From Candidatus Omnitrophota bacterium (GTDB taxonomy: Bacteria > Omnitrophota > Gorgyraeia > B26-G9), in NCBI GenBank assembly GCA_018813905.1, contig JAHJAO010000031.1, positions 5,922 to 69,921 on the forward strand: a stretch of 64,000 nt of DNA. Reading direction: 5' to 3'. The translations under genes were made by a program, and so were the position numbers. Position 1 is the first letter of the stretch; each line of letters opens with the position of its first letter. Below, one piece after another: positions 64 through 55,112 of this stretch. Under the pieces are notes generated by a model. It ran no database searches. It had not been told where the DNA came from and was given only the letters and a program-made list of their open reading frames with translations.

Positions 64-471
64 TTGGCTGTAGAAACACTTAAAAACGCAAAAAAAGTGC
101 TGATTGTAGATGATGAAAAAATGCTCGCTTTTCTTTTAGCGCGTATCCTGAAACTGAAAGGATATCAAACCGCGGTGGCCTATGACGCGTTTGAAGCGAT
201 AGCGTTAATCGAAAAGGGAAAATTCGACCTGGTTATTGCCGATATCCGCATGCCGGAAAAATCAGGGTTGGAATTGATTAAAGAGATTAATCAGCGCTAT
301 CCGCAGGATGGGCCGAACTTTTTAATCTTAACCGGATTTGATTTTGAACTTCCTGCGGACCAGATGCAGCAACTGCGTATTGCCGGTATTGTCCAAAAGC
401 CTTGCCCGCGCATTGAAGAGCTTTTCAAGCAGGTAGAAAACGCTATGCAAAACCCTGGATTAGCCGCCTGA
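64..471 (+). CDS. Stand-alone response regulator receiver (CheY-like REC) domain protein; apparent TTG start preceded by AGGGGG Shine-Dalgarno
   Basis: ORF translation shows the REC hallmarks: the acidic pair VDDE, the phospho-acceptor context LVIADIRMP, and the conserved K in QKP. An RBS-like AGGGGG lies 6-7 nt upstream of position 64. Confidence 0.8.
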   Translation: MAVETLKNAKKVLIVDDEKMLAFLLARILKLKGYQTAVAYDAFEAIALIEKGKFDLVIADIRMPEKSGLELIKEINQRYPQDGPNFLILTGFDFELPADQMQQLRIAGIVQKPCPRIEELFKQVENAMQNPGLAA

Positions 472-1808: not shown

Positions 1809-1837
1809 TTGACAAGCTCAGATTCTTGTCATAGAAT
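1809..1837 (+). promoter_or_regulatory. Sigma70-type promoter (TTGACA - 17 nt - TAGAAT) upstream of the DUF134 gene
   Basis: Exact -35 TTGACA at 1809-1814, a 17-nt spacer, and -10 TAGAAT at 1832-1837. The downstream ORF starts at 1916. Confidence 0.55.
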
Positions 1838-1864: not shown

Positions 1865-1915
1865 AAATAGGGTGTTAAAAGTAGGTAAGTTTTAGTAAAT
1901 TAAGCTGAAGCTAAT

Positions 1916-2242
1916 ATGAAATCGCGCGGAAGGCCTAAAAAGTATAGAATAGTCAGAATTGACCCCATGATCAGCCAATTTAGTCCCAGAGGTAGGCCCG
2001 GAAGACCGGATGAAGTAGTTTTAGGGGTAGATGAGTTTGAGGCTATCAGACTAGCTGATTTTATGGGCACAAGCCAAAAAGAGGTAGCTAAATCCATGCA
2101 TGTATCCCAGCAAACCGTTAGCCGGATCCTGAAGAGGGCGCAAAAAACCGTGGCTGATGCTATAGTTAACGGCAAGATCATTAGAATCCAAGGCGGTTAC
2201 TATGCTATCAGCGCTCACGAACAAAATGAAAAAATTGGATAG
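1916..2242 (+). CDS. DUF134/UPF0251 family predicted DNA-binding protein (sigma-70 region-4-like HTH)
   Basis: The N-terminal RGRPKK...PRGRP motif and the HTH 'QKEVAKSMHVSQQTVSRILKRA' are typical of the DUF134 family. Confidence 0.7.
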   Translation: MKSRGRPKKYRIVRIDPMISQFSPRGRPGRPDEVVLGVDEFEAIRLADFMGTSQKEVAKSMHVSQQTVSRILKRAQKTVADAIVNGKIIRIQGGYYAISAHEQNEKIG

Positions 2243-3047
2243 TTTAACTAAAGATGAATTAATCAGTCTATATATAAATGATAGAAAGTCCTTGGATGAT
2301 ATCGCTAAGATTTATGATGTTTCTCGGGCTGCTGTTTACAAGAGACCGAGAAAATATAACATAAAACAGCGCTCTAAATCGGAGGCAAGAATTGAAGCAC
2401 AAAAACAAGGTAAATTACCACAGGGATTCTTTGATATAAACGAGAACTTCTTTAACAGCTGGTCCTCTGAAATGGCATATGTATTAGGTTTAATTATTAC
2501 GGATGGCTGTGTATCTAAAGCCGGAGTAATTTCTTTATGTATTAATGATAAAGAATTGCTTGAAAAGGTTAAGAAAACTATGAATTCTGAACATCAAATT
2601 AAGCCATCAAAACACCAAAAAAATCTATATTACTTTCATTTTGCCAGGGATAGGATAACCAAAGATTTAGAAAAATTAGGCGTTGTGCCCAGAAAAAGTC
2701 TTACGGTTAAATTTCCTGATATTCCGCAAGAATATCTGTCTGATTTCATAAGAGGCGTTTTTGATGGTGATGGCAGCGTTTTCTTTGATAAGCGTAGACC
2801 AAACTTTCCATTAAGGTCAAAATTCGTGAGCGGTTCAGAGGATTTTATAGAAGGTTTACATGTAAGTCTTAAGCTTTTAGGTATGCCTGAAAGGACGGTA
2901 TATAAGCAAAAAACCAAGAATGGCTGGAACTATATGTTTATATATGACCATAAAGACAGCATAAAATTATTCGGGATTTTATATAAAAATATCCAAAACG
3001 GATTATTTTTAGAACGTAAATATAAGCGTTTTTTAGAAGGTTTTTAA
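2226..3047 (+). CDS. Free-standing double-motif LAGLIDADG homing endonuclease with N-terminal HTH domain
   Basis: Two LAGLIDADG motifs: AYVLGLIITDGCV and IRGVFDGDGSV. An N-terminal HTH is present (DIAKIYDVSRAAVYKR). The start is chosen at the internal Met to minimise overlap with the upstream gene. Confidence 0.8.
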   Translation: MKKLDSLTKDELISLYINDRKSLDDIAKIYDVSRAAVYKRPRKYNIKQRSKSEARIEAQKQGKLPQGFFDINENFFNSWSSEMAYVLGLIITDGCVSKAGVISLCINDKELLEKVKKTMNSEHQIKPSKHQKNLYYFHFARDRITKDLEKLGVVPRKSLTVKFPDIPQEYLSDFIRGVFDGDGSVFFDKRRPNFPLRSKFVSGSEDFIEGLHVSLKLLGMPERTVYKQKTKNGWNYMFIYDHKDSIKLFGILYKNIQNGLFLERKYKRFLEGF

Positions 3048-3070
3048 GGGTTTTTTAGGGAGAAATATAA

Positions 3071-3277
3071 GTGGAAAAAGAACTGGAAGAATGGCGCAAA
3101 TTACACAGGTTTTATCTTTACACCAGCAGTTATGAGACTAAAGATCTGGCTAATTTTTTAGGTGTTAGCTCCCGGACAATGCAGAGGTGGCTGAAAGAAA
3201 AAACTAAGCCAAGTAAAGAACAATTAGCCCAAATCAAGATATATATAGCTAAAAACCAAGTCAAAACTTCCTTATAA
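3071..3277 (+). CDS. Small HTH-domain protein (68 aa)
   Basis: HTH-like segment LANFLGVSSRTMQRWLKEK. It follows the endonuclease gene by 23 nt. Confidence 0.45.
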   Translation: MEKELEEWRKLHRFYLYTSSYETKDLANFLGVSSRTMQRWLKEKTKPSKEQLAQIKIYIAKNQVKTSL

Positions 3278-3597
3278 GCAGGTCTTTTATTGTTTCTTCT
3301 TAATGTCGTACTATTGCCTATAATATATCTTATGTTAACTTGTGTATGGGGAGGATTCCCGCGGGCTATCCGTTGCTGAATATATCAGTTACGTCAATTT
3401 GGCTTTTGCGGGCTTGCGCTGATTGCGGCGGCTATTCCCCGTTTACAAATCCCTTCATTTCTGGTATTGGATTATAATCGTCTTGTGGTTGGTTTTTAAA
3501 GCAGCCACTATATGGCCGGGTCAAATTCCGGCTAATATTTCGCCGCTCCGGACAAGGTTTTCTGGCCTTGGCTTTGCTTCACAGCTCGCGTTGCAGC

Positions 3598-3748
3598 GGC
3601 TCGCAGGCTCAAATCCGAACTTTGGGTAGTACTTGGCATGGCCTAAAACGATTACGAAGCTGCAGCCCTGTTCTAGGAGCTTTTTAAAGCCCTCTTTTAC
3701 GAGCCGGCTGCTAATGCCCTGTTTTTGGCGTTCCGGCAGGACGGCCAT
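3598..3748 (-). pseudogene. Truncated GNAT (YhbS-like) acetyltransferase remnant, C-terminal part only
   Basis: AVLPERQKQGISSRLV...VIVLGHAKYYPKFGF matches GNAT motif A through the C-terminus. An in-frame stop lies immediately upstream of the first Met, no N-terminal half is present, and the reading frame runs on into non-GNAT sequence. Confidence 0.5.
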
Positions 3749-3889
3749 GGGCGCAAGGCTAAACCCATCAAATTTAGCGCTATTTCAGCCCTGATTTTGC
3801 CATTTTCAAGAATTTTTTTGCGGTTCGCTTGAGGAGCTTTTTTCTGATATAATACCAAGGGATATATATTGATTCAATAAAATAAACGT

Positions 3890-4999
3890 ATGGAAGTTAT
3901 GGCGAAAATCTTTTTTTGTATTTTAGTCAGTCTTTTGATTATTCTAAATGGGCAGGATGTATTTGCCGCTAGTTGCCCATATTGCGGGCAACAGTACGGC
4001 GATCCGATGCCCGGAGATGAAGCTAGAGTTTATGCTCTTCGCGCGCAGCATGAGTCTTCATGCCCAGCCCGTTCAACAACCCCAATGTTTGACATTGACA
4101 CAGACGATGGCCTTCGGCCCGGAGGAACCTCTTTTTTTGGCCTTGGCGGGGGCGATTCATCAAGAAATGTTGATTCTAAAAAATCTAAAGAACCGCTTTT
4201 TTCAAAAGGAAGTAAAACATCGGCTCCGGTAGACCTTAGATTTCTAAACATTGAAAGCGATCCGCAGGAAATGTTAAAGGAGCAAGCTGAATTTGATAAA
4301 ATGAATGCGGCCTGGCTAGAAAGACAGAAAAAAGCAATTAGAGAAGCTAGCATAAAGAATAAGTCTTGGACTAAATCAATTATAACTTCTATAAAAACCA
4401 CGCACGTCCCCTCCCCCCTCTATCAGCCCCACGACCTGGATGGTTTACAGCCCGGTGATATTCTGCTTATTGCTCCGGAAGCAGATGACTCCATAAGTAA
4501 TACCGTTGCCTTACTTGATCATATTTATACAAGGCGCATACTGACCTCTGGTGAGAAACAAAGCTCCGTCTCCCATGCCTTAACCGTTGTTAAAACGGTA
4601 AATGGAAAACTATTGTTCCTGGATCATACTTCCGTTGTGGGCAGCCATATATTCGGGGAAAAAGAATTTTTAAAAAATTACGGACACCGGGGTATATACG
4701 TTGCTAGGCCGCAATCAAAAGTAGATGGAGAAGTGCTATGGCAAACAGCCCAAGAGGCAGCAAAAAAAACAATAAAAGATGATAAGGTGGGCTGGGACTG
4801 GACTACTTATGGTCTATTTGGCAAAGATGCGGTTTGTTCAGAGCAAGCGGCTTTAGCCGTAGTCAAAGCTACAGGAAAGCCTCTTTTTAAGAAAAAACTG
4901 ATAGATAACTTAAAACCGATAGAGGTTACTCCGGCAGATTTATATGATCCGGAATATTTCAGCAATTACTTTGTCGTTACTCCCTTAGCCCAAAAATAG
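3890..4999 (+). CDS. Secreted hypothetical protein (signal peptide); C-terminal region possibly a permuted papain-like (NlpC/P60/YiiX-like) fold
   Basis: Signal peptide MEVMAKIFFCILVSLLIILNGQDVFA. The C-terminus has His-containing segments (LLDHIY, FLDHTS) ahead of a CSEQAALA cysteine. The fold assignment is speculative. Confidence 0.55.
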   Translation: MEVMAKIFFCILVSLLIILNGQDVFAASCPYCGQQYGDPMPGDEARVYALRAQHESSCPARSTTPMFDIDTDDGLRPGGTSFFGLGGGDSSRNVDSKKSKEPLFSKGSKTSAPVDLRFLNIESDPQEMLKEQAEFDKMNAAWLERQKKAIREASIKNKSWTKSIITSIKTTHVPSPLYQPHDLDGLQPGDILLIAPEADDSISNTVALLDHIYTRRILTSGEKQSSVSHALTVVKTVNGKLLFLDHTSVVGSHIFGEKEFLKNYGHRGIYVARPQSKVDGEVLWQTAQEAAKKTIKDDKVGWDWTTYGLFGKDAVCSEQAALAVVKATGKPLFKKKLIDNLKPIEVTPADLYDPEYFSNYFVVTPLAQK

Positions 5000-5054
5000 T
5001 TTGTAGTGATCGAGGATTTTAAATATTCAAATATTGTTTTTCTCTATTTTTCCA

Positions 5055-5675
5055 TCAATGCTTCCCCAGTGTATTCCAGATAGCGGTATTTAATTTTATT
5101 AACTCATCGTCGGTGTATTGCGTTCCCATTATATCTAGTTCAAGCACTACGGTATCTTTTGATGTGATTAACATTGTTTGAAGTTGCTCCATCCCGCCAT
5201 TTCTCACTTTTTTGCGGCTGATAAAAGCGCTTCCTCCTTCGGGCACTGGAATTGTCTTATAATCGGATGACAAAATCCTATCCTTGTATTCAGTATCTTT
5301 AAGCAACTGAATCTTCTTCTCCGCTTCCACAAAATCCGCGCTACTCTTTTTATCCGTTAAATGCAGAAATACAACAACTGTAGCCTGCCAAGCTGTTCCA
5401 TCCGCCAGCGTTATCCCTAAACAATCTTGGATGTTTTTTAGTATGCCTTCTATGCGTTTTGCGGGAAGCAATTTCAGCGCGTCGCGCAGCATCTCTTCTG
5501 TAACAAACAGCTCGTTTATGAAATTATTGAGAAATTCGGGAATAGTTTTCAATCGCTCACTGATTTCATCCTTATTAAAATATCCGCTGTCAAAAACCCT
5601 CGCCTTTTCTCCCTCTGCATATACCAAGCCATTTAAACTGAAAATAACAATAAACAAAAACATAAACATTTTTTT
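5055..5675 (-). CDS. Secreted hypothetical protein
   Basis: The internal start MKKMFMFLFIVIFSLNGLVYA is a signal peptide. The upstream extension of the ORF overlaps the neighbouring gene and is probably not translated. Confidence 0.5.
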   Translation of the reverse strand, partial: KKMFMFLFIVIFSLNGLVYAEGEKARVFDSGYFNKDEISERLKTIPEFLNNFINELFVTEEMLRDALKLLPAKRIEGILKNIQDCLGITLADGTAWQATVVVFLHLTDKKSSADFVEAEKKIQLLKDTEYKDRILSSDYKTIPVPEGGSAFISRKKVRNGGMEQLQTMLITSKDTVVLELDIMGTQYTDDELIKLNTAIWNTLGKH

Positions 5676-5748: not shown

Positions 5749-6579
5749 TTATTTATAACAACTTGTTCCTTCTTCATCCATGATCGGTTGTTTAAACTGG
5801 TCAAAGGCAAGAATAGCTGTATGCTTGGCAGAACCGGCTTTAATGCACTTGCTAACCACTTTATAAGTTAGTTTTTCCCCGGGCTGGAGAATCGGAACCG
5901 GTTCAAAGCGAGTTAAACCTGATTTATGTTTAAAGCCTGTAGGGCCTTCGGCTGCGACAAATTCCATTTCCTTTGGAATTTTACTTTCTATTGCTACATT
6001 GGTGCATGGAGAAGTTCCTTCGTTCCGGGCTTCAATTACATAGATTGTCTGCTTGCCTACTTCTACCGGATCTTCTGTGTCATATGATGAAATATGTATG
6101 GCCGGGATACCTGTTATTTGAGTTTCTACAATAGCCATAAGCGGCTCTCCTTCTGAAAAGAAAAGCTTAGAATCTATGCGAGCGCGTCCTGTTGCCGCAG
6201 CTCTTAACTCTAGTTCTATTTCAACGTTATCACCAGGGGCAATTTCACCAAGGCGCCAAGCAACTGAAGCTAATGAATCTTCTTTAGCCGGAGTAAATAC
6301 TCCTTTGGGGGTGGAGCTGATGTATGCAAATTCTTTAGATAGCCTAGCCGTAACTTCTCCTTCTTTTTTGGGTTCTTTTTTAGTGTTAAGAACAGTAATC
6401 TTGTAATTAGCGCTCCGATTAAGAAATAATAGGCGTGGGCCGGCTAAAGAAAAGATTTCAGGAGAGGGCTGAGGTTTCGCACCAGTACAAGCGGCAAGAG
6501 AAATCATAATGACAAATATTAAACTACCTATAAGGATAGCGCTGCGTTTATTTAATTGTGTTTTTCTCCGCGTATTCAT
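5749..6579 (-). CDS. Lipoprotein, DUF11-like repeat domain protein
   Basis: Lipobox LAAC after the N-terminal hydrophobic segment. The sequence is beta-rich and repeat-like. Confidence 0.5.
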   Translation of the reverse strand: MNTRRKTQLNKRSAILIGSLIFVIMISLAACTGAKPQPSPEIFSLAGPRLLFLNRSANYKITVLNTKKEPKKEGEVTARLSKEFAYISSTPKGVFTPAKEDSLASVAWRLGEIAPGDNVEIELELRAAATGRARIDSKLFFSEGEPLMAIVETQITGIPAIHISSYDTEDPVEVGKQTIYVIEARNEGTSPCTNVAIESKIPKEMEFVAAEGPTGFKHKSGLTRFEPVPILQPGEKLTYKVVSKCIKAGSAKHTAILAFDQFKQPIMDEEGTSCYK

Positions 6580-6606: not shown

Positions 6607-7077
6607 TTATTTCTTTTTATTAAAAGGGCTCTTTTTGCCGATCGTTTCCTGAAGCAGGCCCATGGGGCAGATCATGCACCAGGCGCGGTGCTTTTTTATT
6701 GTGCCCAGGATAATGGAAATTATGGTGGTTACCAGGCACATGATGACAAAGACTGAACCAATGGCCAGCAAGTTTCCTCCGGTGCGGATTATCCGGATGA
6801 TAAGAAAGCTGATAAACAAAACAAATATCAGCCAGCGGAACCAAATTTTGCTGAAAATTTTCGGCAGGGGTTTTTTGGCGCTGACTTTGGATAGGATAAT
6901 ATCTAAAAAAGCGCCTCGCGGGCACAGGTTCCAGCACCAGTACCGGCCTTTAAAAAAAGACAGGCTTAATAAAACAATCATCATGGCCAATACCAGATAG
7001 CCAAGTATTGGATAAAATAAGCCGCCGATGACGATAACCGGCAGAAACCAGATCATTACAGCTTGAGTTTTCTTCAT
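6607..7077 (-). CDS. Membrane protein with 4Fe-4S-binding-domain-like CxxxCP motifs (NapH/CcoG-type polyferredoxin-like)
   Basis: YWCWNLCPRG and WCMICPMG motifs are embedded between predicted TM helices. Confidence 0.55.
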   Translation of the reverse strand: MKKTQAVMIWFLPVIVIGGLFYPILGYLVLAMMIVLLSLSFFKGRYWCWNLCPRGAFLDIILSKVSAKKPLPKIFSKIWFRWLIFVLFISFLIIRIIRTGGNLLAIGSVFVIMCLVTTIISIILGTIKKHRAWCMICPMGLLQETIGKKSPFNKKK

Positions 7078-27905: not shown

Positions 27906-27979
27906 TGGAGCGGGCGAAGGGAATCGAACCCTCATATTCAGCTTGGGAAGCTGATGTTCTGCCACTGAACTACGCCCGC
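27906..27979 (-). tRNA. tRNA-Gly (anticodon CCC)
   Basis: The reverse complement folds as a canonical cloverleaf: GCGGGCG acceptor, anticodon loop TTCCCAA, T-loop TTCGATT, encoded CCA. Confidence 0.85.
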
Positions 27980-55036: not shown

Positions 55037-55112
55037 TGGTGGAGCCAGGGGGGCTCGAACCCCCGGCCTCCTCGTTGCGAACGAGGCGCTCTCCCAGCTG
55101 AGCTATGACCCC
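55037..55112 (-). tRNA. tRNA-Ala (anticodon CGC)
   Basis: The reverse complement GGGGTCATAGCTCAGCTGGGAGAGCG...TTCGCAA...GGTTCGAGCC...TGGCTCCACCA carries the G3:U70 Ala identity pair and an encoded CCA. Confidence 0.85.

Follow-up and report, generated by a model that had tools for sequence, protein, structure and literature searches.

A free-standing HTH-LAGLIDADG endonuclease homolog and its small HTH partner adjoin dif in Omnitrophota and anammox Planctomycetes: a candidate dif-targeted selfish cassette

In the 64-kb stretch of DNA analysed here (hereafter the window), a gene encoding an HTH-LAGLIDADG endonuclease homolog and the adjoining gene for a small HTH protein flank the chromosome dimer-resolution site dif on its XerC side, and related loci have the same arrangement. 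We propose, with a probability of roughly 0.4, that these genes belong to a selfish endonuclease cassette that derives from phages, targets dif, and has long been resident, and that the host may have co-opted in part. Homing endonucleases target conserved coding or rRNA sequences via introns and inteins, and dif is exploited by Xer-dependent elements (IMEXs) as well as by IS1202-type insertion sequences; a LAGLIDADG family parked on the XerC side of dif in two phyla would join the homing-endonuclease and dif-element fields. A literature search for a link between LAGLIDADG proteins and dif, or for a function of DUF134, found nothing. Two of the observations reported below go beyond the preliminary description of this DNA, namely that the cassette abuts dif and that its compositionally foreign unit is the LAGLIDADG and small-HTH pair only, with DUF134 excluded.

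The LAGLIDADG gene (2226-3047; coordinates are those of the window, and features lie on the + strand unless marked otherwise) is central in a predicted operon with the order DUF134-LAGLIDADG-small-HTH. Translation from ATG 2226 (MKKL), the start used in orthologs, gives a protein of 273 aa, one residue fewer than the 274 aa previously given, and starting instead at ATG 2202 would lengthen it to 281 aa. Pfam, PHROG, AlphaFold2 (AF2), Foldseek and residue conservation show that the product is a structurally complete two-domain LAGLIDADG protein that belongs to the free-standing "HTH-LAGLIDADG endonuclease" family of phages. Pfam identified LAGLIDADG_3 in two stretches (E=2.4e-13), and the profile phrog_4645 ("endonuclease") matched residues 8-269, i.e., the full length, with E=1.3e-48. 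Motif 1, LGLIITDGC, is encoded by nt 2484-2510 and motif 2, RGVFDGDGS, by nt 2751-2777; the N-terminal HTH is YlxM-like. In the AF2 model (pLDDT 88.5), helix 81-93 terminates at D93 and helix 168-182 at D182. The best Foldseek matches of this model were I-Tsp061I (E=4.5e-10), intein endonucleases and I-DmoI, with a probability of 1.00 for I-Tsp061I, I-DmoI, PI-PfuI and I-OnuI; WhiA structures were also among the matches. I-Tsp061I (2dch) is the nearest solved structure by Foldseek and also by profile comparison (E=2.2e-6), with I-DmoI at ~5e-6. Pfam, AF2 and Foldseek therefore agree with the earlier reading of a monomeric, double-motif LAGLIDADG protein with an N-terminal HTH, and profile and fold searches remove the doubt that had been raised as to whether the second motif represents a true LAGLIDADG half.

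At five positions (D93, K157, S158, D180, and D182, the last being E in one sequence), the residue is the same throughout 40 orthologs and throughout 19 sequences spanning 38-73% identity. K157 is presumably the "Block D" lysine of intein endonucleases, and the protein retains a metal-binding acidic residue closing each motif along with an active-site lysine. Purifying selection is evident along the entire length of the protein. No extein surrounds the ORF and Rfam found no intron, which supports the previous statement that the gene is free-standing and outside any intein or intron. By contrast, the view that such genes are uncommon was too strong, as Bacillota, CPR bacteria, DPANN archaea, and phages contain many free-standing relatives at 26-39% identity.

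The phage HTH-LAGLIDADG endonucleases (PHROG 4645; e.g., the genes with the annotation "endonuclease" of Brevibacillus phage Jenst and of Staphylococcus Kayvirus-type phages) are free-standing and have the same full-length architecture, with 28-36% identity over 95-97% of the protein in tblastn comparisons; while these genes are phage-borne and scattered, the gene in the window's clade is chromosomal, single-copy, part of an operon with HTH partners, and located beside dif. Searches of IMG/VR, INPHARED phages, and PLSDB plasmids yielded no phage, viral-contig or plasmid relative above ~45% identity, and there is thus no evident vector. I-Tsp061I and I-DmoI, which are archaeal, intron-encoded and monomeric, share the two-domain pseudo-dimer and the acidic residues that end both LAGLIDADG helices, but reside in rRNA introns and carry no extra HTH, whereas the window's protein has no intron, an N-terminal HTH, and a separate HTH partner. 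A further parallel is the HO endonuclease of yeast, a LAGLIDADG enzyme of selfish origin that has kept its catalytic activity and serves at a single chromosomal site (PMC3384342); the likeness is that of a LAGLIDADG enzyme associated with one chromosomal site, whereas HO is eukaryotic, intein-derived, and involved in host-beneficial gene conversion.

With regard to expression, a sigma-70-type promoter, TTGACA-17-TAGAAT (1809-1837), precedes the operon and matches 11/12 consensus positions, so that its earlier designation as strong is justified; TTGACA and -10 pairs are found at the equivalent relative place in five other loci (L009, L010, L018, L027, and L083). At or just 3' of the -10 lies a perfect palindrome, ATTATGAGT-AAGC-ACTCATAAT (1843-1864), which, judging from its conservation and uniqueness, is presumably an operator for autoregulation. 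Of the ~19 loci with DUF134, most have kept the palindrome (~17 of them clearly so); it is missing where DUF134 is missing, and occurs once in the 64-kb window, compared to 0.05 copies expected by chance. It is followed by a leader (1865-1915) that shows nucleotide conservation across loci (AAATAGGGyGTTAAAAGTAGGTAAGTTTwAGTAAA before the DUF134 start) and that holds two AGGTAA/AAGTAA repeats ~11 bp apart. The reverse complement of the leader resembles TTACYT repeats to the right of dif in relatives; such inverted leader-like repeats beyond dif are present in relatives but absent in the window.

The first gene of the operon (1916-2242) encodes a 108-aa DUF134 (UPF0251) HTH protein (Pfam PF02001, E=7.5e-26), and its stop overlaps the LAGLIDADG start. 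DUF134 is found 5' of the LAGLIDADG gene in ~19 loci, is replaced in some lineages by a receiver or PilZ protein, and is kept next to dif in L086 and L087, both of which are without a LAGLIDADG gene. The third gene (3071-3277) encodes the small HTH protein (68 aa), for which Pfam gave weak matches (HTH_17, 8e-5) and which is characterized by its adjacency to the LAGLIDADG gene in ~24 loci (with divergent versions in L019 and L024), by natural LAGLIDADG and small-HTH fusions (P0072, E=8e-15, and P0206), and by pairwise identities that co-vary with those of its LAGLIDADG partner (rho 0.76). This pair, which is predicted to be co-transcribed and is fused in some lineages, is the conserved core of the cassette. 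The positions of all three ORFs and the identity of the two flanking genes as a DUF134 and a small HTH gene are as originally described. Downstream of the operon, a motif abutting the XerC arm of dif, ATGTCGTACT (ATGTCGYACT; 3303-3312), occurs as a single copy in the window and is a candidate binding site for the small HTH protein. This assignment is suggested by presence and absence across loci: ATGTCGCACT is present in loci with a canonical small HTH, is absent or degenerate in L003, L015, L016, L023, and L086-L088, all without a canonical small HTH, and takes degenerate forms in L019 and L021, where the small HTH is divergent.

dif itself (3313-3340) starts 35 nt from the end of the operon and reads ATTGCCTATAA-TATATC-TTATGTTAACT (XerC arm, 6-bp centre, and XerD arm, respectively); it has the 28-bp 11-6-11 layout with the conserved XerD arm TTATGTTAA and inner ATAA/TTAT. 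Using dif reference sequences as quoted in PMC3025954, 23/28 positions are identical to Bacillus subtilis dif, and 26/28 for the dif of L086. With a dif PWM, the window site scores 45 bits and is the sole site above 8 bits in 64 kb, compared to a background maximum of 7.0 bits in 75 unrelated loci; each locus has one site. GC skew is greater to the left than to the right of dif in 25/26 loci (p=6e-8), which places the site at the skew switch of the replication terminus, and the weak signal in the window alone reflects that only 3.3 kb lies to the left of dif. A crude motif scan of the window for tyrosine recombinase (Xer) genes found none.

The linkage between the cassette and dif is maintained over considerable distances. 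The distance from the LAGLIDADG stop to dif is 218-362 bp in 29/29 Omnitrophota loci measured, where the gene lies to the side of the XerC arm and shares the strand of the site; ~30 Omnitrophota species have this placement and orientation in common with anammox Planctomycetes. Relatives from Tritonobacter and anammox Planctomycetes (42-48% identity) also adjoin dif, with linkage across phyla represented by L024, L026, L247, L025/L249, and L053; relatives L245 and L246 (45-49% identity) are not near dif. In the window's clade the gene is single-copy and chromosomal, and rpoN and dinB are found again as outer neighbours in 9-11 loci. The pair surpasses the surrounding host genes in conservation; for the LAGLIDADG protein, identity exceeds that of DinB and RpoN in 100% of genome pairs. 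Its pairwise identities correlate with those of DinB (rho 0.77) and not with those of RpoN (rho 0.02); L002 is mildly discordant. The correlation with DinB fits vertical descent with no clear transfer event. Base composition points the other way: in genomes with measured host GC3, the LAGLIDADG gene falls short of host ORFs in GC3 by 0.15 and the small HTH gene by 0.12, compared to +0.03 for the upstream partner, and in L017 the receiver gene has a GC3 of 0.77 and the LAGLIDADG gene of 0.34 against 0.67 for the host. Foreign GC3 in all measured loci argues for horizontal flux.

The cassette also shows presence/absence polymorphism at a fixed site as well as decay. Four loci have decayed LAGLIDADG copies, three of them with internal deletions (L022, L027, and L035) and one with frameshifts (L028), and these decayed genes keep their neighbours, including an intact small HTH gene. 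A dinB-anchored metagenome scan for empty sites (at least five close loci) identified, among the matches listed, three contigs of the lineage from which the LAGLIDADG gene is missing (L086-L088), all from one metagenome and possibly representing few independent events. Overall, the cassette is decayed or lost in roughly one lineage of five. L003 and L086, which are close relatives, differ by a 1.2-kb indel that ends inside the XerC arm, and no clean empty-site scar was seen in the cassette-less alleles. The XerC arm reads exactly ACTTCCTATAA in 3/3 cassette-less loci, compared to 0/29 loci in which the gene is present, be it intact or decayed; in L008 and L019, intact LAGLIDADG genes stand beside near-canonical XerC arms. 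The preliminary description had considered that the block might be universally conserved in the lineage as a housekeeping regulator; its fixed position in ~30 Omnitrophota species is in keeping with this, but because four loci are decayed and three dinB-anchored contigs among the matches listed are without the gene, the block is not a housekeeping one.

Under our preferred reading of a dif-targeted selfish cassette, the enzyme and its HTH modules would recognise the cassette-free XerC-side junction of dif, a putative target that is ultra-conserved, single-copy, and non-coding. The enzyme would cut this junction in cassette-less chromosomes or in incoming DNA, and repair from a cassette-bearing copy would install the cassette, i.e., homing, with homology provided by the conserved dif region on one side and by the partner gene on the other. 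Cassette-bearing chromosomes could be protected in two ways, as their XerC arm departs from canonical ACTTCC in its outer six bases and as the small HTH protein may occupy the adjoining ATGTCGYACT. Expression would be low and autoregulated via the palindromic operator, and partial co-option by the host may have occurred, as suggested by long residence and by the receiver or PilZ partners of some lineages. We count in favor of the selfish cassette the family, fold, active site, high conservation, and fusions of the protein; the identity of dif, the fixed geometry, the cross-phylum linkage, and the compositional island; and the decayed copies, the absence from L086-L088, the indel between L003 and L086, and the canonical arm found only in cassette-less loci. 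Against it we count the vertical signal in the comparison with DinB, the near-canonical arms beside intact genes in L008 and L019, the scar-free cassette-less alleles of single-metagenome origin, and the want of an evident vector among phages, viral contigs, and plasmids, as well as purifying selection, an operon with a presumed operator, and the receiver or PilZ proteins that take the place of DUF134, which have the look of host integration. A precedent for mobile DNA that targets the XerC side of dif is the IS1202 family, for which PMC10132070 describes one-orientation insertion a few bp from the XerC-binding side of dif/pdif (ISAjo2 group). This geometry is the same as that of the cassette, but a transposase and terminal inverted repeats are features of these insertion sequences, whereas the cassette has no transposase and, by a repeat search, no terminal repeats.

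The strongest rival to the selfish cassette, which we regard as possible though rather unlikely, is a domesticated terminus factor, i.e., a former homing endonuclease that has been kept by the host and that, together with the small HTH protein, binds beside the XerC arm. Such a factor could be an Xer accessory protein or regulator, like the cer/psi accessory proteins or XafT, or a Tus/RTP-like fork or terminus protein, with input from its DUF134, receiver or PilZ partners. It would account for a single-copy gene at one conserved locus with recurring rpoN and dinB, for co-divergence with DinB at a rate slower than that of DinB or RpoN, and for a linkage to dif that persists among PVC-related phyla at identities as low as 42%. 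The operon with its conserved, presumed operator, the receiver and PilZ partners, and the ATGTCGYACT motif adjoining the XerC arm also speak for this explanation, as does the fact that the tus and rtp genes, too, lie beside their own sites near dif and are autoregulated via these sites. The likeness to the Tus/Ter and RTP/Ter fork traps consists of a DNA-binding gene beside dif and, in relatives, of leader-like repeats inverted beyond dif; however, Tus and RTP have no sequence or fold relationship to the cassette proteins. The fusions also give a parallel with WhiA/DUF199, a transcription factor of Gram-positive bacteria that shares the double LAGLIDADG with an HTH, chromosomal conservation, and autoregulation (presumed here), and whose domain order, LAGLIDADG twice and then HTH, is that of the P0072 small-HTH fusion. 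WhiA, however, is domesticated and has lost the catalytic residues (PMC3384342), whereas the window's family keeps them invariant, has no WhiA Pfam domains, is dispensable, and is compositionally foreign. The invariance of the catalytic residues and the dispensability of the gene (four decayed copies and three absences) argue against a terminus factor; lasting non-host GC3 is hard to square with ancient vertical residence, and L245 and L246 lie away from dif.

A second alternative, which we consider improbable, is that the cassette represents cargo of a small IMEX or "dif module" inserted at dif by XerCD, such that its proteins would aid or regulate the Xer reaction and nuclease-driven homing would play no part. 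IMEXs (CTXphi, TLCphi with XafT, and the gonococcal island) and Acinetobacter dif modules are foreign DNA that resides at dif with no integrase of its own, and the small DNA-binding proteins of the cassette could act on Xer as XafT does in TLCphi (PMC6744903, PMC9226527). The cassette likewise sits exactly at dif with no integrase of its own, its composition is foreign, loci with the cassette have a non-canonical XerC arm in their functional dif, and the outer flanks of the window differ from the rpoN/dinB context of its relatives. In addition, a repeat search and arm match identified a dif-like half-site, ACTTCCTATAA-TCTTAG-CCTGTTTTAAG (1696-1723), which combines a perfect "canonical" XerC-type arm with a degenerate XerD side; it is located 5' of the promoter and 1.6 kb 5' of dif, in direct orientation relative to dif, so that the two sites bracket the promoter and the three genes in the manner of attL and attR. 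The half-site shows 0 mismatches to the XerC arm of the LAGLIDADG-less loci L086-L088, but its full-site PWM score is -21.8, and a counterpart was found only in L014, with 1 mismatch, the other loci having nothing above chance; it could be a left junction or a chance occurrence. IMEXs are bounded by a pair of recognisable Xer sites and also exist as phages, plasmids or conjugative elements, whereas the cassette has a candidate second site only in the window, carries no replicative or phage functions, and has no close extrachromosomal relatives in the three databases searched. Moreover, DUF134, which would lie inside the putative element, is host-like in composition, and the overlap of its stop with the LAGLIDADG start leaves no room for an inter-module junction. 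The DUF134 leader was also considered as a degenerate dif; we did not accept it as an Xer site, because its PWM scores (-15 to +4 bits, compared to 26-48 bits for real sites) are only marginally above background. The literature search found no LAGLIDADG nuclease within a described IMEX.

Less probable still is an ordinary transcription-factor operon, in which a WhiA-like regulator would control distant genes and the position at dif would be inherited synteny without function. Three HTH-bearing proteins and an autoregulatory-looking operator are what such an operon would contain, WhiA structures are among the fold matches, and JGI labels a few relatives "WhiA"; however, Pfam found no match to WhiA_N, LAGLIDADG_WhiA or HTH_WhiA in the window's LAGLIDADG protein, the catalytic residues are kept, and adjacency to dif persists where all other synteny has gone, as in the window itself and across phyla. 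A regulon search within the 64-kb window found no second copy of either the palindrome or ATGTCGYACT. Finally, a toxin-immunity (addiction) cassette, with the nuclease as toxin and the small HTH protein as antidote, would explain the tight linkage, and at times fusion, of a nuclease with a small DNA-binding protein, but we consider it highly unlikely, as a toxin-antidote fusion would be atypical, lineages survive with decayed nuclease genes beside an intact partner, and PADLOC, Pfam, and NCBIfam gave no significant TA-family match, the few antitoxin-type HTH matches being weak and far below family cutoffs. Among the three options put forward in the preliminary description, a mobile selfish module and a domesticated nuclease-regulator pair are thus both alive, and the toxin/immunity-like cassette is without support.

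Taken across the selfish-cassette and terminus-factor readings, the HTH-LAGLIDADG and small-HTH pair may, we tentatively suggest, constitute an unrecognised dif-acting class that extends from Omnitrophota to anammox Planctomycetes, either as the first homing endonuclease to have dif as its target and safe harbour or as a nuclease-derived Xer/terminus accessory factor with c-di-GMP (PilZ) or phosphorelay (receiver) input. The former would represent a new selfish-DNA strategy, in which an essential, non-coding, single-copy site serves as both target and harbour, and would provide a natural long-target nuclease of interest for genome engineering, with a target that is probably found in most bacteria; the latter might add a new regulator of chromosome dimer resolution, in uncultured PVC-related lineages about which little is known. 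The dif PWM together with the cassette provides a practical marker of replication termini in Omnitrophota MAGs.

Several further observations concern the surroundings of the cassette. The window's own flanks are common to no other locus, with the exception of one gene in L019, and first hinted at mobility; yet in relatives the cassette is repeatedly surrounded by rpoN and dinB. The tblastn matches of two antisense ORFs, 1900-2181(-) and 2636-2917(-), are explained by these ORFs being shadows of the coding strand. ATGTCGCAC-N-TGCC was considered as a sigma-54 promoter but rejected, as by eye it does not have the GG/GC spacing. The conserved element downstream of the operon was also considered as a non-coding RNA gene, with no Rfam match at gathering thresholds and no consensus structure by RNAalifold across 27 aligned loci, and this reading was rejected when the element was recognised as dif. 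An oriC-like origin in the downstream region, suggested by the DnaA-box TGTGGATAA, was not adopted, given a single box; this box is absent from the window and, in relatives, lies at a fixed +68 nt from dif.

The preliminary description had proposed a free-standing, double-motif LAGLIDADG homing endonuclease gene between two helix-turn-helix (HTH) genes, and this cassette was borne out, as three co-oriented ORFs follow a strong promoter and the central product has both a LAGLIDADG_3 Pfam match and a homing-endonuclease fold. The three ORFs, all on the plus strand, encode a DUF134 protein (1916-2242; 108 aa; Pfam DUF134, E=7.5e-26), the LAGLIDADG protein (2226-3047; 273 aa; Pfam LAGLIDADG_3, E=2.4e-13, in two stretches), and, at 3071-3277, a small HTH protein of 68 aa. 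The DUF134 stop and the LAGLIDADG start overlap, and 23 nt separate the LAGLIDADG gene from the small HTH gene; an alternative upstream LAGLIDADG start (ATG at 2202) has no ortholog support, and both HTH regions gave weak Pfam matches only. The promoter, TTGACA-17-TAGAAT (1809-1837, plus strand), matches 11 of 12 consensus positions. In the compared loci, the palindrome ATTATGAGT-N4-ACTCATAAT precedes DUF134 wherever this gene is present, with few exceptions, and is located at or just 3' of the -10 element, with a conserved leader next; it is found in a single copy within the 64-kb window, and we infer that it represents a putative autoregulatory operator.

An AlphaFold2 model of the LAGLIDADG protein built from 40 orthologs (pLDDT 88.5, pTM 0.76) places D93 and D182 at the ends of interface helices 81-93 and 168-182, and Foldseek matched this model to I-Tsp061I (E=4.5e-10), intein endonucleases, I-DmoI, and I-OnuI, with WhiA lower in the ranking. 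A PDB profile search returned I-Tsp061I (2.2e-6) and assigned the N-terminal HTH to YlxM/UPF0122. Eight residues (D93, G94, K157, S158, D180, G181, D182, and G183) are invariant across the 40 orthologs and, with the exception of one D182E, in a 19-sequence alignment down to 38% identity; while WhiA has lost its active-site acidic and basic residues, making DNA cutting impossible (PMC3384342), the Omnitrophota LAGLIDADG clade has retained them. A role as housekeeping regulator, membership in WhiA, and an intron or intein context are ruled out by the data. With regard to ancestry, phrog_4645 ("endonuclease") covers the whole protein architecture (E=1.3e-48, residues 8-269), genes of Brevibacillus, Staphylococcus, and Flavobacterium phages show 28-36% identity over 95-97% of the protein length, and plasmid and IMG/VR relatives are as distant as the phage ones; these matches thus point to descent from free-standing phage homing endonucleases.

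A database protein, P0001, shows 100% identity to the window protein and assigns the window to a Candidatus Omnitrophica MAG. All relatives compared are MAG or metagenome contigs. The best 120 of 556 database matches to the LAGLIDADG protein showed 62-81% identity, were ~276 aa long, and were nearly all single-copy; selection of one genome per species yielded ~30 Omnitrophota loci (52-74% identity to the window protein). Relatives outside Omnitrophota include Tritonobacter (48%), a Lentisphaerae contig (45%), and Brocadiaceae and Scalindua (42%), and the remaining homologs (Bacillota, CPR, DPANN) reach at most ~39% identity. The constant core across loci is the pair of LAGLIDADG and small HTH genes; locus L019 and Tritonobacter still carry divergent versions of the small HTH, and LAGLIDADG-small HTH fusions occur in several lineages, including the relative proteins P0072, in which residues 288-342 match the small HTH (47% identity, E=8e-15), and P0206. 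DUF134 is the upstream partner in ~19 loci; L013, L017, and L028 have a CheY-like receiver in that position (PF00072, 7.7e-30), L015 and L016 have a PilZ protein (5e-11), and L002, L004, and L008 have no upstream partner. Stand-alone CheY-like receiver genes recur upstream of the cassette, at most a few kb away (window 64-471, L002, L008, L009, L013, L017, and L028), and in three loci a receiver gene occupies DUF134's own place. An unrelated small DNA-binding protein substitutes for the small HTH in L003 (4050-4391, a 113-aa HTH-like protein), L015 and L016 (~6794-7040), and L023 (1204-1368, a ribbon-helix-helix protein), and the ATGTCGCACT motif beside dif is missing in exactly these four loci. 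LAGLIDADG proteins of anammox Planctomycetes (L025, L026, L247, L249) have a second N-terminal HTH repeat, which brings their length to ~350-400 aa; L248 encodes the extra HTH as a separate upstream gene.

A 27-nt non-coding sequence 3' of the small HTH gene is nearly invariant in every locus and, judged by its sequence, is a dif site, i.e., a chromosome dimer-resolution site composed of a XerC arm, a 6-bp centre, and a XerD arm. In the window this site reads ATTGCCTATAA-TATATC-TTATGTTAACT (3313-3340, plus strand) and follows the operon's last stop codon by 35 nt; the B. subtilis and E. coli dif sites are ACTTCCTAGAATATATATTATGTAAACT and GGTGCGCATAATGTATATTATGTTAAAT, respectively (PMC3025954), and the dif of L086, a cassette-less relative, is identical to that of B. 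subtilis at 26 of 28 positions. With a matrix built from ~30 loci, real dif sites scored 26-48 bits (one per locus and one in the 64-kb window), and the best score among 75 unrelated loci was 7.0 bits. GC skew was higher left than right of dif in 25 of 26 loci (Wilcoxon p=6e-8; weak in the window alone), a drop expected at a replication terminus. In all 29 Omnitrophota loci, the LAGLIDADG gene is on the XerC-arm side and on the same strand as dif, which its stop codon precedes by 218-362 bp (median 263). The linkage reaches outside Omnitrophota, with dif nearby in Tritonobacter (L024, 22.9 bits), 43 bp past the stop in Scalindua (L026), 65 bp past the stop in an anammox-type contig (L247, 25.7 bits), overlapping the stop in a contig labelled Bacteroidales (L053), and ~1.5 kb off in the Brocadiaceae type (L025, L249), where dif-queE-queC is inverted. 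No dif was found inside 4 kb of the LAGLIDADG gene in L245 and L246 (45-49% identity) or in Bacillota, CPR, and archaeal homologs, and none of the papers searched joins LAGLIDADG to dif or XerD. Among anammox Planctomycetes (L025 versus L026, L247, and L249), the dif-queE-queC segment is flipped relative to LAGLIDADG, with dif at the boundary.

Only loci with the canonical small HTH have the motif ATGTCGYACT abutting the XerC arm. The XerD side carries TGTGGATAA, which is a perfect DnaA-box sequence and, when up to one mismatch is allowed, is located 67-69 nt right of dif in ~20 of 32 loci (background, 0.034 per 220 nt); TTACYT-N5-TTAC repeats follow at +89 (88-90 nt). Together, these elements form an extended dif region of fixed geometry (L001-L028 and L081-L088, e.g., ~7180-7215 in L004), which is present with or without the LAGLIDADG gene and is absent from window 3341-3500, where GC-rich DNA is found instead. 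In cassette-less L087 (reverse complement, ~1030-1060), the XerC arm has TTAC repeats (AACTTACTTACTTTTACC) immediately to its left; the same repeats are found elsewhere right of dif and, as reverse complement, in the DUF134 leader.

Several signals indicate stable vertical residence: the cassette occurs once per genome, is preceded by divergent rpoN in 9 loci and followed by convergent dinB in 11, and shows pairwise LAGLIDADG identities that correlate with those of DUF134 (rho 0.81), DinB (0.77), and the small HTH (0.76) and not with those of RpoN (0.02), the pairs being non-independent in each case. In every genome pair, LAGLIDADG identity exceeds DinB and RpoN identities. Other signals, namely low GC3, decay, and absences, are those of an element that is foreign or selfish. 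In 24 of 24 loci measured, the LAGLIDADG gene had a lower GC3 than host ORFs (mean gap 14-15 points; most extreme in L017, with 0.77 for the receiver gene, 0.34 for LAGLIDADG, and 0.67 for the host) and the small HTH gene was ~12 points below, while the upstream partner was host-like (+3 points); the compositional island thus comprises the LAGLIDADG-small HTH pair, with DUF134 outside. The LAGLIDADG gene has lost motif 1 through an in-frame deletion in L022, has large internal deletions in L027 and L035, and is frameshifted in L028, with intact surrounding genes in all four. Three dinB-anchored metagenome contigs (L086-L088), all from one sample, lack the pair; the gene order is DUF134-dif-dinB in L086 (with rpoN ahead) and L087, and L088 includes the DUF134 3' end only. 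L086 is closest to the LAGLIDADG carrier L003 (87% identity for DUF134, 78% for the DinB C-terminus), from which it differs by a 1.2-kb indel with its right edge inside the XerC arm. The canonical XerC arm ACTTCCTATAA is present in all three cassette-less contigs and, as an exact match, in 0 of 29 loci with a LAGLIDADG gene (L008 and L019 are one base off).

The best fit to these comparisons, with a probability of about 0.4, is an endonuclease cassette of phage origin that targets dif and has long been resident. Gene conversion of the homing type among related genomes would maintain such a cassette, dif would serve as both a universally conserved target and a harmless harbour, and altered XerC-arm bases together with the small HTH may confer self-protection. 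This model alone jointly explains why geometry at dif is fixed across phyla, why the active site is intact and the composition persistently foreign, why conservation exceeds that of host genes, and why decay and loss recur; by contrast, the DinB correlation and the receiver and PilZ partners look like host integration, and no vector was found among phage, plasmid, and IMG/VR relatives. The main rival, which we consider somewhat unlikely, is a domesticated accessory factor of Xer or the terminus; it would account for operon logic and co-divergence and leaves composition and dispensability unaccounted for. Insertion at dif by an integrative mobile element that exploits Xer (IMEX) is a weaker and improbable reading, for which the main support is one half-site in the window, ACTTCCTATAA-TCTTAG-CCTGTTTTAAG (1696-1723), in direct orientation with dif and upstream of the operon promoter by 113 bp; its XerC arm is identical to that of the cassette-less relatives and nearly that of B. 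subtilis, and the half-site may represent either a left junction from Xer-mediated insertion or a chance occurrence. An ordinary transcription-factor operon with a dif position due to inherited synteny is decidedly improbable, and a toxin-immunity (addiction) cassette even more so.

Directly right of dif, a GNAT acetyltransferase remnant occupies window 3400-3860 (minus strand), a local GC maximum (0.51); ORF 3521-3748 (minus) matches the C-terminal part only of GNAT domains, with the upstream part in another frame, and the remnant looks like a pseudogene from rearrangement at the terminus. Several relatives carry TA/Abi-type genes (AbiEii, a Fic fragment with HTH, and a PIN/AbrB-like pair) near the cassette and dif (L083/L084, ~4290-5137; L081, 2556-3062; L008, 7259-7909), which fits a role of the terminus as a sink for accessory DNA. 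Farther along, the window encodes a DUF11-repeat surface protein (5749-6579, minus) and a small 4Fe-4S (Fer4_5) membrane protein (6607-7077, minus), the latter being the only window flank gene with a counterpart beside the cassette of another species (66% identity in L019). tRNA-Gly(CCC) (27906-27979, minus) and tRNA-Ala(CGC) (55037-55112, minus) are the sole Rfam or ARAGORN matches in the window.
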